A stretch of DNA of 64,000 nt from IMG/VR virus record IMGVR_UViG_2756170246_000002, positions 156-64,155 of that record. One strand, given 5' to 3'. Below, in pieces: positions 2-36,006 of this stretch. Every line of letters starts with the position of its first letter. The first letter of the stretch is position 1. Position numbers and translations under genes: made by a program. The notes below the pieces were generated by a model. The model was given only the letters and a program-made list of their open reading frames with translations, ran no database searches and was not told the DNA's origin. Origin of the DNA: a virus.

Positions 2-334
2 GGCATCGGCTTGATCGGCGAGCTCTTGTGCTGCGGCGTCGATCTCGGCCTGCTTGGCCTTTGCCTTTGCCGCCGCTGCAAGTTCGGCGCGGCGCTGTTT
101 CTCCTGCCAGACCAAGCGTTCGTTCAGTTGGCCGGCGGCGTACTCGCGATCGACACGCCCATCGACGAAGCCGGCCAGCACCGGACCAGCATAGGGGATG
201 TATCGAAGCGGCCCGATCGGCAAGCCCTCATAGAACAGGACGATGCAGCCGGCGACGACCAGCGGCAGGCCGACGCGGCTGGTGCAGAAGGTCCAGATCG
301 GACCAAGCACGACAAGGATAGGGCCGAGGAACAT
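2..334 (-). CDS. Putative Rz-like spanin / lysis membrane protein (partial, runs off window)
   Basis: Read by hand (not in ORF track): MFLGPILVVLGPIWTFCTSRVGLPLVVAGCIVLF... hydrophobic N-terminus then Ala/Lys/Glu coiled coil; ATG overlaps upstream TGA. Confidence 0.55.
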   Translation of the reverse strand, partial: MFLGPILVVLGPIWTFCTSRVGLPLVVAGCIVLFYEGLPIGPLRYIPYAGPVLAGFVDGRVDREYAAGQLNERLVWQEKQRRAELAAAAKAKAKQAEIDAAAQELADQADA

Positions 335-684
335 CACGGTCCTTCTCCTGGCGGTGGCGGCATTGCCGGCCCTGGTGTAGGCATGTCAGCCGGAACGACG
401 GTGCGCTGATACATCTCGGTCTGCATGCCGCCGCCGCCAACGCCGCCGATGTTGGTCAGACCGCCCTTGTCGTCCCAAACCGCTCCGAAGACATACGAGC
501 CGATGACTGACGCCATGAGCAGCAGCAGCCCATTGACCGCGGTCTCGGAAAGCTGGATCGGCCGGCCGAGGATCGCCAGATAGGTCACCATCGCGCCGCA
601 CCAGACGAGCACGATGACGATGATCCGCCTGCGCATCGTCCACGACGAGCGGAACGCATTGCGCGCGGCGCTGCGCGGGTTCAT
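334..684 (-). CDS. Putative holin (two TM helices)
   Basis: Two hydrophobic segments, directly downstream of the endolysin. Confidence 0.55.
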   Translation of the reverse strand: MNPRSAARNAFRSSWTMRRRIIVIVLVWCGAMVTYLAILGRPIQLSETAVNGLLLLMASVIGSYVFGAVWDDKGGLTNIGGVGGGGMQTEMYQRTVVPADMPTPGPAMPPPPGEGP

Positions 685-685
685 G

Positions 686-1177
686 TCAGCCGACCCATTC
701 GGCCGTCAGGGCGGCGTCATAGTGCTGCGCAATGACAGCGATCTCCTGTGCCCGATCGGTGCCGTTGATGATGCGGCGAGCTTCGACGAAGTCGGAATGC
801 TGCAGATCGATATAGTCGGAAAGCTTGCGGCCGGTGAACCAGCCTTCGCGCATGCCAGTCACAGCGATCTTGGCCGCATTGGCCGGATCGAGCGCAAGCG
901 TCGGATCCTGATCGAAGGCCACGCCGAGCTCGCGGGCGGCGCGCTGATAGTTCGCCTGCCAGGTCAATTGCACGAATCCGCGACCGAACCACGGATAATA
1001 GCGCAGGTGCGCCCGGCGCCAGTCTTCCGACAGCCAATAGGCCTCGACGACCGGCCGCATGGTATGCGCGGTCTCCCAGAAGGTGGTGGCGAGCACATAG
1101 GCGCACTGGTTGCGGAGCAGGCCTTGCGCCTTGCTCTCATCGATGAGCAGGCGGGTGCAGCCGAGGGATAGATCCAT
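686..1177 (-). CDS. Endolysin, GH19/lysozyme-like fold
   Basis: AYVLATTFWET, GRGFVQLTWQANY and ARRIING motifs typical of GH19-like phage lysins. Confidence 0.88.
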   Translation of the reverse strand: MDLSLGCTRLLIDESKAQGLLRNQCAYVLATTFWETAHTMRPVVEAYWLSEDWRRAHLRYYPWFGRGFVQLTWQANYQRAARELGVAFDQDPTLALDPANAAKIAVTGMREGWFTGRKLSDYIDLQHSDFVEARRIINGTDRAQEIAVIAQHYDAALTAEWVG

Positions 1178-1224
1178 CGCGTTTGCCTTTCCATGGTCGG
1201 GGAAATTGTTCGCTTTCGGGGTGC

Positions 1225-1239
1225 TTAACCAATCGCTAA
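1225..1239 (+). promoter_or_regulatory. CtrA-box-like site TTAA-N7-CTAA upstream of the tadG-like gene
   Basis: TTAACCAATCGCTAA, one mismatch to TTAA-N7-TTAA, in an AT-rich intergenic region. Confidence 0.5.
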
Positions 1240-1326
1240 TGCAACCCCTTGCTGCATTGCGCAGCCGGGCCTATGCTTTGAAGGCACGGGGAAAATAGTT
1301 GCGGCAGGGCTATGGGGGACGCTGCG

Positions 1327-2841
1327 ATGTTTCGTATTCTGCGTAACTTTTGGAACGATCAACGCGGTGTCGCGATGCTGTTGGTCGCGATCATGTTGCC
1401 GGTTCTCATCGGGTTTTCTTTGCTGGCCATAGACATGAGCCGGGCAACCGGGCTTCACCAACAGTTGCAAAAGGGCATCGACGCCATCGCTCTGGCCGCC
1501 GCCGCGGAACTGGATGGCAGATCGGATTCGATCACGCGGGCCAACCTCACCGTAACGACGCTGCTCGCCAACCAGACATTGTATTCGGAACTTGGCGGTC
1601 ACACGCTCGTCCCGGCAGACGTGACGGTCACCTACCTGACCGGGATACCCGCCAGCGACGAAACCGCATTGACCGCCGCTGGCGTCGACGCCAACAGCGT
1701 GAATTGGGCGAGCAGCGATCCCAAACTGGTGTCTTTAGCCGAAGTGACGATAAATGCATCCGGCTTGGCAAAGGGCGCCGGTGCCTTCGCGACAATCTTC
1801 CCCGCGAGCCTCGTCGGGAGCACAGACACTTTCGACATCCGGCCGCAGGCTGTCGCCGGGTTCGTTCAGTCGATCTGTGAAACGGTTCCGCTGTTCATGT
1901 GCAATCCGTTCGAGACCACGGATTCTTCGACCAGCAAGACGATCCAGCAAGCCTTTGCCTCTGGAGACACCTACAGCCGCGAATTCCGCGTCCTGAAGGT
2001 CGACAGCAACCCTGGCCCTGGCAACTTCGGACTGATCGACAACAACCTGAGTTCATTGCGCGATGCCATAGCGATGGGCACATCTGGTACCTGCTATAGC
2101 CGCGACGCACTCACCACAAAAACCGGCGTCACGCTCGGCCAGGTCAACACGGGCCTCAATGTCCGCTTCGATCTTTACAGCGGCTCGTTGAATAAGAGCA
2201 GCAAGGATTTCAATTACCGGCCAGCGACCAATGTTCGCAAAGGCCAGAAGACGGGTTGCAGCAAGTACGATCCCGTGGCTGACAACACCGCGCTGCCCCT
2301 GCCACCAGGAACGAACTATGTCGATGCGAAAGGAATGTCAGACGCGATTGGTTCCCAAGGCTTTTGGACGAACTACTGGCAGATCAACCATGGCGTGCCG
2401 TACCCGAACGTTCCCAGCGCTACCAACCCAACCGGCTCCACGAGCGCTCCCGCATCACGATATGACGTCTACAAGTACGAGATCGCCAAAAAACTTGTCA
2501 GTGATAAGTCGCTGGCTCCGACCAAGGAGAACGGCGATCCATCCTGCTACAAGGGGGATACGCCGACACTCGATCCAGACCGCCGACTGCTCAACATGGC
2601 GATCGTCAACTGCATCGCCAACCAAGCGAAGCTAAACGGCCACATCTCAATCAAGCCGGACGGCTATGCCAGCGTCTTCGTGAACACACCCGTTCTCAAG
2701 CAGGATAACACCAAAGACCCAGAAGATCCCTCTGCTGGCGAGAAGCCGATCAGCCTGGAGATCGTCGATGTCGATGGCGGTTTCGCCAACAACACCCTTG
2801 TCGACAAGGCATTTCGCAACGAGGCTCAGCTTTACCGGTAG
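1327..2841 (+). CDS. TadG-like Flp/Tad pilus assembly/tip protein (moron, antisense to late operon)
   Basis: Pilin-like N-terminus FWNDQRG-VAMLLVAIMLPVLIGFSLLAID...LQKGIDAIALAAAAEL; C-terminal RRLLNMAIVNC; ORF track gives an alternative start at 1312. Confidence 0.85.
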   Translation: MFRILRNFWNDQRGVAMLLVAIMLPVLIGFSLLAIDMSRATGLHQQLQKGIDAIALAAAAELDGRSDSITRANLTVTTLLANQTLYSELGGHTLVPADVTVTYLTGIPASDETALTAAGVDANSVNWASSDPKLVSLAEVTINASGLAKGAGAFATIFPASLVGSTDTFDIRPQAVAGFVQSICETVPLFMCNPFETTDSSTSKTIQQAFASGDTYSREFRVLKVDSNPGPGNFGLIDNNLSSLRDAIAMGTSGTCYSRDALTTKTGVTLGQVNTGLNVRFDLYSGSLNKSSKDFNYRPATNVRKGQKTGCSKYDPVADNTALPLPPGTNYVDAKGMSDAIGSQGFWTNYWQINHGVPYPNVPSATNPTGSTSAPASRYDVYKYEIAKKLVSDKSLAPTKENGDPSCYKGDTPTLDPDRRLLNMAIVNCIANQAKLNGHISIKPDGYASVFVNTPVLKQDNTKDPEDPSAGEKPISLEIVDVDGGFANNTLVDKAFRNEAQLYR

Positions 2842-2843
2842 GC

Positions 2844-4115
2844 CTAAGACCAGACCGTCGACAGATCCTGGAGCGCCGAGTCCGACATCGGCGCCCAGAC
2901 GTGGATGAAGCGGATATAGCCGCCGTTGACCGTGACATCGCCGGGCAGCCCGCCGAAAGCCGCTGCTTCGGCCGTGGCGACCAAACTAGTTCCGACAGTC
3001 GCCACAGGATCGCCGTTGACTGACATCGAAAGCCGCCCGCTGACCCTGGTTACCGCGATCTGGTGCAAGTTGGCGGAATAATGGGAGCGCGGATCGGTGA
3101 CTGTGCGGCTTGCCAGCAAGGCGTTGAAGTCCGACGCCTGCATTGCGAGGTTATCGGCCGAGGCGAGCCGCTCGAGCGTGACGCCATTGTCAAGCGCATT
3201 GGTCGCAACGGCCAACGGAATAGTGACATGATCGTTGTTGTCTTCCTCGTAGCCGACGAGGATGGTCCAGTTCATCGACGTCAGAGTTGCTAGGAACGTC
3301 CCGATTATGCCGATCGGCACGTCGCCATAGGGAATCTCGAGACCGAAGGCGGAGAGCGCACCGGGTGTATCGACGATATCGGCTAGCGTTTTCGATACGC
3401 CTGCGACGGAATAGACCCCGTTGAGGAAGTCTGCCGAGGCGAGGGTACTGCCGGGCAGGCTATAGGTTGGGCGGGCCGAAAGCGTAGGCAGATCGGCGTC
3501 GGCCTGGAGGTCAAGGCGTTCGATCGAGCGGATGTAGATGCTATGTGCCAGATAACCGGCGCCTGGCGCAGCGCCCAGCGAAAGCGCAGTTGCTGTCAAT
3601 GCAAAGACATCGGCTGTTGTGGTCTCAACTGCGTTGCCATCGGCCGACATCGAGAGGCGGCCGGCCGAGCGCGACAGCGCGACCTTGTGAACACCAGTAG
3701 GGAAACCCGCTGTATCGTTGACTTGGCGGAAGTAGATGCCGACGGTGTCCGTGGCGTTCATATAGCCGCTGGTCAGACGGGCCAGATAATAGGTGCCGTC
3801 ACCGGTGTCCGTGTAGAGGAATGGATAGCTGGTGCCGCTATCGGCGCGCTGGTAGTATTCGACGACGACGGTCTGATCGTCGCCCAAGAAGGCGGCGAGC
3901 GCGTCGCCGATCACCTCCACCGAAGGTGAAGCCTCAGAGTCCAATATCTCAAGCCCTGCGCTTGTGACCCAGCCCGGCTGGTCGATGACGTCGGCAGCCG
4001 TGACGGTGACGCCTGCGACTGTATAGCTTGCGCCCTTGAAGTCGAGCAGGGTCGTGTCGAGCGGAGGCGTTGGTGTTCCAGCGCCCTGCGATGCCCAGAT
4101 GCCGAACGAGGTCAT
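2844..4115 (-). CDS. Tail fibre/receptor-binding protein with two repeated LamG/ConA-like domains
   Basis: Internal repeat (HKVALSRSAGRLSMSADG vs HQIAVTRVSGRLSMSVNG); last gene of the tail module. Confidence 0.6.
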   Translation of the reverse strand: MTSFGIWASQGAGTPTPPLDTTLLDFKGASYTVAGVTVTAADVIDQPGWVTSAGLEILDSEASPSVEVIGDALAAFLGDDQTVVVEYYQRADSGTSYPFLYTDTGDGTYYLARLTSGYMNATDTVGIYFRQVNDTAGFPTGVHKVALSRSAGRLSMSADGNAVETTTADVFALTATALSLGAAPGAGYLAHSIYIRSIERLDLQADADLPTLSARPTYSLPGSTLASADFLNGVYSVAGVSKTLADIVDTPGALSAFGLEIPYGDVPIGIIGTFLATLTSMNWTILVGYEEDNNDHVTIPLAVATNALDNGVTLERLASADNLAMQASDFNALLASRTVTDPRSHYSANLHQIAVTRVSGRLSMSVNGDPVATVGTSLVATAEAAAFGGLPGDVTVNGGYIRFIHVWAPMSDSALQDLSTVWS

Positions 4116-35155: not shown

Positions 35156-35299
35156 CTAACCGCGGTCCAATGGCGACGGGCGCTTGCCTGATAGCTTGCG
35201 CTTCTTGCCCTTGACCGCCTTTTTTTTCGCCAAGCTGACCGGCTTTGCCTTGCGCTCGGGCTTGGCCTTCGTGCCGGGGATCTGCGTGTAGCGGATCAT
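35156..35299 (-). CDS. 47-aa Lys-rich basic protein MIRYTQIPGTKAKPERKAKPVSLAKKKAVKGKKRKLSGKRPSPLDRG
   Basis: Read by hand; ATGA overlap with upstream stop. Confidence 0.55.
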   Translation of the reverse strand: MIRYTQIPGTKAKPERKAKPVSLAKKKAVKGKKRKLSGKRPSPLDRG

Positions 35300-35910
35300 G
35301 CCGCTGCCCTTAGCTGGCAGGTGCCGCAGGCTTGGGAGATGCGAACGTTGGCGATCTCTGGTCCAGCATTGGCAGCATCTACCAGTTCGCGAACATGGGC
35401 GGCGTCTGCACCGTAGCGGCGGACGACGCCGATAAATTCTTCGACGTCATGTCCACGGATGGCGAAGGCCGGCAGGCCGGACTTGCGGAACTTTGGAGCG
35501 CCGAATGCGTCGCGCTCCTGCCCTGCATGATATGTTTCGTGCTCCACCAGCGCCATGAACTCGGCGTCGGAACACGTGTCGCAATATCCCGCATCGAACG
35601 TGAGCAGGAAATCCGGGATGTCGCCGAACCAGTCGAGCATCTGGCGCTCTATCCGGCCGCGCAACCATTTGCCGGCGGGTGGCAGGCCGCGCTCGCATTG
35701 CCCGATGACGGAACGCCCCGCCCTGCCGTTGGGAACATTGGTCCACAGTGCCGCGAGCGTCGCGGAGCGCAGGTGCTTGTGATCTTCGTTGAGAAGGCTC
35801 GCGCCCTCATCGATGAAGCACTGGCGCGCCCAGGTGATGATCTCGGGCGCCGGGCGAAAGATCGGCTCGCCTGAAATTTCGAGGATGTCCTCGGGCGGAC
35901 GAGGCCGCAT
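35296..35910 (-). CDS. Putative phage metallopeptidase
   Basis: LVEHETYH, GHDVEEFIGVVRRYG and CGTC motifs. Confidence 0.8.
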   Translation of the reverse strand: MRPRPPEDILEISGEPIFRPAPEIITWARQCFIDEGASLLNEDHKHLRSATLAALWTNVPNGRAGRSVIGQCERGLPPAGKWLRGRIERQMLDWFGDIPDFLLTFDAGYCDTCSDAEFMALVEHETYHAGQERDAFGAPKFRKSGLPAFAIRGHDVEEFIGVVRRYGADAAHVRELVDAANAGPEIANVRISQACGTCQLRAAA

Positions 35911-36006
35911 GGCGACCGGCGATCCCGCACGTGCTTCGGCCACCGGCCGGAAATCACGCTGCATTGGTTTGAAGCTCCGCTTCGATGAATTTTCGACTGT
36001 ACCCAC

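Follow-up and report, generated by a model that had tools for sequence, protein, structure and literature searches.

A prophage accessory gene encodes a variant tip protein of the Tad pilus in Mesorhizobium

F10-like prophages of Pseudomonas aeruginosa encode a FimU-like minor pilin, P-FimU, that is built into the type IVa pilus of the host and blocks phages that bind the pilus tip (Sztanko et al., Cell Rep 2026, PMC12952977). The same paper lists phage PilA-like proteins and makes no mention of Tad, Flp or TadG. Prophages of Vibrio harveyi carry Tad-pilus subunit genes, as does the prophage examined here; their Flp genes are listed as putative virulence factors (PMC12482185). That report concerns the major pilin only, without slot, allele or regulation analysis, and describes no TadG. 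Here we describe a tadG gene in a 64-kb stretch of viral DNA (IMG/VR record IMGVR_UViG_2756170246_000002, positions 156 to 64,155), hereafter the window, which corresponds to G000:C11:71783-135782 of a Mesorhizobium assembly of 7.45 Mb. The gene is a phage accessory gene, or moron, that encodes a variant of TadG/CpaL, the tip protein of the Tad (type IVc) pilus. An earlier note on this DNA had proposed it as a superinfection-exclusion factor, invoking a Pseudomonas minor-pilin precedent and knowing of no Tad-pilus version. P-FimU is that precedent, and our literature search found no paper on prophage-borne TadG.

The locus resembles P-FimU in arrangement and differs in its components. In both cases a host subunit of the pilus tip complex has a diverged counterpart in a prophage, related phages hold diverse alleles, the gene is linked to a variable tail protein, and the subunit is proposed to replace that of the host with the pilus kept. 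P-FimU is a small core minor pilin of a type IVa pilus, whereas the gene here encodes a large, head-bearing TadG/CpaL-type protein of ~500 aa for a Tad pilus. Its cassette, unlike that of P-FimU, includes a CtrA-like box and in many cases a gene for a 98-aa secreted partner, and sister prophages hold Flp major pilins in the same slot. The action of P-FimU has been demonstrated in Pseudomonas; that of prophage TadG is a prediction. A further likeness is to llp of phage T5, which lies beside the pb5 gene, and to Cor of phi80, N15 and T1, receptor-blocking genes found at the gene for the receptor-binding protein. As with these, a small putative exclusion module is co-inherited with an adjoining tail-tip or fibre gene. 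The proteins of T5 llp and Cor bind and block an outer-membrane receptor, however, whereas the TadG candidate would replace a subunit of the receptor organelle.

CpaL/TadG of Caulobacter provides the structural reference. Its N-terminal domain is minor-pilin-like, and models place its middle region atop the pilus tip (PMC13533445, PMC12607857). Without the middle region the pilus is still assembled, less efficiently and with partial piliation; fibre initiation requires the extreme C-terminal strand (PMC13533445). The protein is linked to pilus-dependent phage sensitivity, cpaL having been recovered in a screen for resistance to phiCbK (PMC12607857). Prophage TadG resembles CpaL in its N-terminal module, putatively minor-pilin-like, its large middle, its extreme C-terminal strand and the tad-locus position of its orthologues. 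It differs in that CpaL has ~600 aa and a predicted vWA middle, whereas neither Pfam nor fold search found a vWA signal in prophage TadG, which lies outside a tad locus.

The prophage gene is intact and encodes a protein with a recognizable Tad module. Its longest open reading frame (ORF) spans 1312..2841 on the plus strand (509 aa). Translation probably starts at ATG 1327, giving 504 aa, because homologues of 499-505 aa begin there and a GGGGGA lies 7 nt upstream. The product, P0001, matches the Pfam family Tad (PF13400) at residues 19-65 with 28.8 bits against a cut-off of 22.3 (E 1.6e-6). The description of a complete TadG-like ORF antisense to the late genes between tail fibre and endolysin is confirmed. 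NCBIfam returned a TadE-like match only, below threshold, and PHROGs and PADLOC returned none. By tblastn, P0001 had no match among 50,697 phage records; the gene is found in prophages and viral contigs and in none of the isolated phages of that collection.

P0001 begins with a Tad module, putatively pilin-like, continues in a variable middle domain and ends in the C-terminal strand RNEAQLYR. Conservation across 53 TadG sequences peaks at residues 1-80, falls to its minimum at ~320-360, and ends with RNEAQLYR invariant or nearly so. In the AlphaFold2 model (predicted local distance difference test, pLDDT, 78) a long helix lies at the N-terminus, and residues 501-508 form the last strand. The fold neighbours of this model in AFDB and the ESM atlas are TadG-like proteins only (AFDB clusters, E 2e-19). 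Foldseek against PDB and Swiss-Prot AFDB yielded nothing below E 0.1, and a wide PDB search with the whole model reached at most Z 6.5, with unrelated folds. The N-terminal module aligned with PilX (Z 4.8), PilJ (4.6) and PilV (3.4), all below the tool's stated noise level; these weak minor-pilin alignments bring residues 43-180 together with the C-terminus. For the middle domain (pLDDT 73) the best PDB score was Z 3.0 and the ESM-atlas neighbours were again TadG-like only. Searches of solved structures gave no match, so no known fold is assignable to the head.

Comparison with the resident TadG suggests a subunit that keeps its docking parts and changes its head. The closest locus-borne relatives of P0001 (78-88% identity) are encoded by tadG in canonical tad loci of Mesorhizobium, in which the order is flp, rcpC, cpaC, a small gene, tadG, two tadE-like genes, cpaE and ykuD. 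A complete tad locus with a resident TadG lies on contig 10 of the host, which is therefore predicted to be able to build a Tad pilus. Its tad genes other than tadG are 81-94% identical to those of a reference locus (L008, which holds P0006), whereas its TadG is 47% identical. Resident and prophage TadG are 48-51% identical overall, and the identity is mosaic: 76% over residues 1-180, 31% over 181-496 and 100% over the last eight. Such a mosaic is the pattern that would be expected of a swappable tip subunit. It also matches the architecture reported for CpaL, with an essential C-terminal strand and a largely dispensable, tip-modelled middle (PMC13533445).

Tip-complex genes form a hypervariable module in a conserved machine. 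Across ~40 Mesorhizobium tad loci, TadG is 36-88% identical to P0001, whereas CpaC and CpaE hold steady at 78-97%. In the same loci (L006 = G000:C10:138000-157900; L047-L078, L098, L100-L102), TadE1 ranges over 37-88% and TadE2 over 49-94%, and TadG, TadE1 and TadE2 co-vary as a module in several old allele classes. Extra TadG copies have a head of another class than the resident one: the middle domains are at most 53% identical in 7/7 comparable genomes (31-53%) and below 40% in 5/7, a small sample of genomes that are not independent, against 39% of random resident TadG pairs that fall below 50% middle-domain identity.

The gene sits inside a complete prophage. The remainder of the window is one temperate phage, with phage genes on both sides of tadG and throughout. 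Structural genes encode a tail assembly protein, a 1149-aa Rcc01698-like tail protein, a head-tail adaptor, a major head protein, a portal and a large terminase; early and regulatory genes encode an anti-repressor, a CI-like repressor, RecT/exonuclease and a primosomal protein. As the earlier note had it, the gene has no tad partners nearby: tblastn with Flp, RcpC, CpaC, two TadE proteins, CpaE, CpaF, T2SSF and prepilin peptidase showed all of these to be absent from the 64-kb window, where TadG was the only match. Its TAG stop occupies 2839-2841 and the stop of the last tail-fibre gene is the complement of CTA at 2844-2846, so the coordinates do place the two stops 2 bp apart. The endolysin gene on the other side is the first of a lysis cassette that runs leftwards through 334..684 and 2..337. 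With its own conserved promoter region, an orientation independent of the neighbouring operons and presence in some relatives and absence from others, tadG has the hallmarks of a moron.

Related prophages use the same slot for TadG, for Flp pilins or for nothing (Table 1). We defined the slot as the interval between fibre and lysis genes, read on the opposite strand, and compared prophages that share tail-module genes. TadG alleles 37-77% identical to P0001 adjoin the fibre in L036, L037/L038 and L039, so the divergent alleles anticipated at this locus do exist. Other sister prophages have one or two genes for the Flp major pilin in place of TadG. Flp genes in the same orientation lie near tail-fibre or tail genes (L085, L086, L087, L089) or lysis genes (L086, L088) in five IMG/VR contigs, L086 being the only one in which the slot is bracketed on both sides. 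Two prophages, G059 and G055, have an empty slot, since the endolysin directly follows the fibre gene. Two more IMG/VR fibre relatives end inside the fibre gene, leaving their slots unreadable. Elsewhere, G131 (M. huakuii) and G174 (M. argentiipisi) carry TadG and the 98-aa partner beside terminase-, tape-measure- and baseplate-like genes. The presence of TadG or Flp in diverged sister prophages rules out a one-off host fragment absent from related prophages.

Fibre and TadG appear to vary together. The window fibre is 77% identical to that of L036, which adjoins a TadG 77% identical to P0001, with a tail protein at 43%; the corresponding values for L037 are 33% for the fibre, 45% for TadG and 51% for the tail protein, which makes two comparisons and an anecdotal trend.

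Additional TadG copies also occur beyond the slot. A TadG match (E <= 1e-30) is present in 136 of 201 species-representative Mesorhizobium genomes, 11 of which have more than one. One extra copy, at G059:C1, lies beside an integrase-like ORF, judged by eye only; another, at G048:C46, adjoins tail-like ORFs, identified by eye and by one weak match to a tail protein. Around the extra copies in G088, G048:C70 and G175 no mobile-element genes were recognized.

Most prophage and orphan TadG genes are directly followed by a gene whose 98-aa product bears a signal peptide and two invariant cysteines. The protein belongs to no Pfam family. It occurs in 4 of 200 Mesorhizobium genomes and in none outside Mesorhizobium in the species-representative collection, and it may be a partner of phage TadG.

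A conserved promoter region precedes tadG. The cassettes of the window, L036, L037 and G174 encode proteins 45-78% identical and have in common TTAACC-N4-GCTAA, CTTGC (-35), a 17-nt spacer, TATGCT (-10) and the leader GCACGGGGAAA. The conserved promoter blocks also occur in five orphan copies. Outside the four cassettes, three orphan copies keep the promoter and have the box re-spaced or absent. A generic scan for E. coli-type sigma-70 promoters found none at tadG. The rhizobial promoter consensus is CTTGAC-N17-CTATAT, to which the element at 1248..1277 is close, and we call the tadG promoter on this likeness together with the conservation of the blocks. Contigs from RNA libraries begin just past the predicted -10, at 1290 (X2) and 1298 (X3), leaving 1080-1289 and 990-1297 uncovered before them; coming from three runs on one sample in one study of the same organism, with neither strand nor level, they offer at most a weak hint and, by the rules of the tool, evidence neither of a start site nor of absence. 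The earlier note had called the upstream region AT-rich, which overstates it: at 57% GC against ~60-62% the region is mildly AT-richer.

The promoter region carries a CtrA-like box, a putative site of CtrA control. The TTAA-N7-CTAA reported upstream of tadG is present as described, and its half-sites are invariant in four diverged cassettes. TTAACCAATCGCTAA is the sole TTAA-N7-YTAA in the window, where 0.21 are expected; at least one site arose in 15 of 100 shuffles, so uniqueness alone is weak evidence. The box matches 7 of 8 CtrA consensus positions, ends 9 nt before the -35 and marks the left edge of the conserved cassette, homology between cassettes starting a few bases before it. Perfect TTAA-N7-TTAA boxes precede the host flp genes as well as the flp genes of the G128 prophage. 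In Sinorhizobium meliloti, CtrA is a direct activator that binds the promoter of the Flp pilin gene pilA1 (PMC4433202). Taken together, the tadG box, the flp boxes and the S. meliloti precedent make co-regulation with the pilus plausible.

TadG alleles have moved between phages and hosts and have been maintained. In a maximum-likelihood tree, prophage and orphan alleles fall at no fewer than four separate places among host-locus alleles, which shows repeated exchange between phage cassettes and host loci. The window TadG groups with the orphans L014 and L033 with weak support (90/64); these and three host alleles form a well-supported set of six (100/98), and two other host alleles make up the sister group of L034 and L036 (99/94). 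Against its nearest relatives, tadG has a ratio of nonsynonymous to synonymous substitution rates (dN/dS) of 0.05-0.10 at dS ~1, and the copies are therefore old and functional. Reading frames are intact in all full-length TadG copies, the only broken ones being fragments in G020 and G045. The tadG gene is thus intact and under purifying selection.

We consider superinfection exclusion through replacement of the Tad tip to be the best-supported reading of these data, one on which our confidence is evenly balanced. In the lysogen, the promoter of the cassette would drive tadG, perhaps with CtrA in control, as for the host flp genes. Phage TadG would join the host minor pilins TadE and TadF when pilus assembly starts, displacing the resident TadG. 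The re-tipped pilus would no longer offer the surface recognized by tip-binding phages, whether relatives of this phage or others. The outcome would be superinfection exclusion with the pilus retained, as for Pseudomonas P-FimU. If this is correct, exclusion by tip-subunit swap reaches beyond the type IVa pilus of Pseudomonas to the Tad pilus, an evolutionarily distant one, and the principle moves from a small minor pilin to a large head-bearing TadG/CpaL. The Tad tip would then be a phage battleground in rhizobia, offering an explanation for the hypervariability of TadG, TadE and TadF.

Several observations weigh against exclusion by tip replacement. This analysis demonstrated no Mesorhizobium phage that uses Tad pili, and the lectin/glucanase-like domain predicted in the adjacent fibre would fit a polysaccharide receptor equally well. 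Old allele classes (dS ~1) under purifying selection give no sign of fast positive selection. The RNA contigs cover tadG and the late genes alike, without strand, and a scan found no convincing terminator 3' of tadG. Because the CtrA-like box is an imperfect inverted repeat, a regulator other than CtrA could bind it. The 98-aa partner found with most prophage and orphan copies is lacking from the window, which has a clean junction in its place, and from the rest of its own genome; if the partner is needed, the P0001 copy may be incomplete. Finally, extra TadG copies outside recognizable prophages suggest that the host itself may benefit, for instance in adhesion.

This last point leads to lysogenic conversion, in which phage TadG would give the tip a different binding or mechanosensing head and alter surface sensing or the attachment to soil particles, roots or other cells, to the benefit of the lysogen. 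CpaL/TadG carries the adhesin or sensor part of the Tad tip, and its loss alters holdfast production and attachment in Caulobacter (PMC12607857), and the Flp pilins of other prophages have been read as adhesion factors (PMC12482185). Extra copies outside prophages and old, conserved allele classes are what such a role would lead one to find. The recurrent tail-to-tail placement with a receptor-binding fibre, together with fibre/TadG co-variation, nevertheless fits a phage-versus-phage module better, and the fact that the extra allele is always unlike the resident one is predicted by both readings. We therefore regard conversion as possible, though on the unlikely side.

Two further readings deny the phage protein a working place in the pilus or any role at all. 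Phage TadG could poison the tip initiation complex, leaving the lysogen with fewer or no Tad pili and excluding all pilus-dependent phages, an outcome that would resemble Tip or Aqs1 of Pseudomonas phages. The tip complex does license fibre assembly, and CpaL defects abolish piliation (PMC13533445); TadG, TadE1 and TadE2 co-vary in host loci, so mismatched subunits could interfere. Yet the N-terminal module (76%) and C-terminal strand (100%) look fully compatible with those of the resident, host TadE1 and TadE2 share 87% and 94% identity with their counterparts in loci where class-A TadG is the natural partner, and a mere blocker would not need the full-length middle domain that is kept under purifying selection. 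Poisoning thus seems improbable. More doubtful still is a passenger that does nothing for phage or lysogen, a host tadG that illegitimate recombination brought in and that has still to be lost. The gene is dispensable, its slot being empty in related prophages, and its similarity to host loci coincides almost exactly with the limits of the ORF. Against this account, TadG or Flp occupies the same slot in many diverged prophages, the promoter cassette is conserved, frames are intact in every full-length copy, and dN/dS of 0.05-0.10 at dS ~1 indicates long-standing constraint.

Exclusion by tip replacement could also be part of a larger exchange, which we put forward tentatively and judge unlikely as a whole. 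The exposed middle domain of TadG might be the receptor of a widespread family of Mesorhizobium siphophages, with phages and hosts sharing one pool of TadG heads. Cassettes made up of box, promoter and tadG, whether or not joined by the 98-aa partner or flp, would protect lysogens by re-tipping the pilus and would also replace chromosomal tad alleles, and the CtrA-type box would time the subunit to the part of the cell cycle when tip complexes form. Such a shared pool would explain why TadG, TadE and TadF are hypervariable inside conserved loci.

These alleles may be of use beyond phage biology. As natural chimeras with shared docking parts and different heads, they are useful for dissecting binding at the Tad tip. 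In rhizobia, Tad pili reportedly affect attachment and plant interaction (S. meliloti, PMC10934763), so that changes of the tip driven by prophages could bear on how inoculants perform and on phage pressure in soil.

Table 1. Coordinates of the tadG cassette, its neighbours and the corresponding positions in related prophages; percentages are TadG identity to P0001 unless stated otherwise.
Feature	Sequence or locus	Coordinates	Strand	Remarks
Prophage-borne tadG (P-TadG), 504 aa	window	1327..2841	+	Probable coding sequence; strand opposite the late operon
CtrA-like box TTAACCAATCGCTAA (TTAA-N7-CTAA)	window	1225..1239	+	Half-sites conserved, spacer variable in four cassettes
Promoter-like element	window	1248..1277	+	CTTGCT -35 (1248-1253), 17-nt spacer, CTATGCT -10 (1271-1277); conserved blocks
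Conserved leader GCACGGGGAAA...	window	1284..1326	+	Predicted transcription start near 1284; Shine-Dalgarno GGGGGA 1314-1319
GH19-type endolysin	window	686..1177	-	phrog_181, E 1.4e-23; left neighbour of tadG
phrog_14936 gene	window	334..684	-	PHROGs
Tail fibre, 423 aa	window	2844..4115	-	Two ConA/Laminin_G_3-like halves; convergent with tadG; right neighbour
TadG (77%) + 98-aa secreted two-cysteine protein	L036, IMG/VR prophage of isolate genome			Fibre/lysis slot
TadG (45%) + 98-aa partner	L037/L038, metagenomic viral contigs			Fibre/lysis slot
TadG (37%)	L039			Adjoins fibre
TadG (36%) + 98-aa partner	G001, M. amorphae			Just past lysis cassette
Two Flp pilin genes	G128 (G128:C11)	L028:9612-9972		Fibre/lysis slot, opposite strand; endolysin 93% identical
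Empty slot	G059			47 bp between fibre and endolysin
Empty slot	G055			250 bp between fibre and endolysin
98-aa partner gene	L033	6717-7013	-	
98-aa partner gene	L034	5975-6277	-	
98-aa partner gene	L032	8491-8787	+	
98-aa partner gene	L036	5459-5764	+	
98-aa partner gene	L037	3536-3838	+	
98-aa partner gene	L014	9512-9808	+	

The tail-fibre protein has two similar halves of ~200 aa each (residues ~24-214 and ~209-419), each resembling the single lectin-like domain of the shorter fibres in related prophages. Beyond the fibre gene come a T4 gp9/10-like gene and then the 1149-aa tail protein, which carries Phage-tail_3/Rcc01698_C domains. A transposase-like gene (35296-36006, minus strand; phrog_513, E 5e-73) lies inside the prophage beside the packaging genes. 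A tRNA-Thr gene (L007 13863-13937) that lies outside the left end of the window was rejected as attachment site on that side, its orientation being at odds with simple 3'-end integration. Contigs of all three RNA runs follow the window as far as 973, or from 5327 onward, before departing into 255 nt of unlike sequence; the sequenced culture may hold a related element or variant in which the segment between 973 and 5327 differs.

The closest relative of P0001 (89% identical) is an orphan TadG at L014:8001-10271, on a Logan contig from SRR29763724, followed by the 98-aa partner and then the start of an Flp gene. It adjoins an exopolysaccharide cluster (Wzz/Wzy/Poly_export), and the contig ends before the context becomes clear. 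Several of these prophages also have a gene for an ATP-dependent DNA ligase no more than a few kb from the TadG cassette, at L032:5899-6777, L036:1-891, L039:933-1811 and L069:2222-2704.

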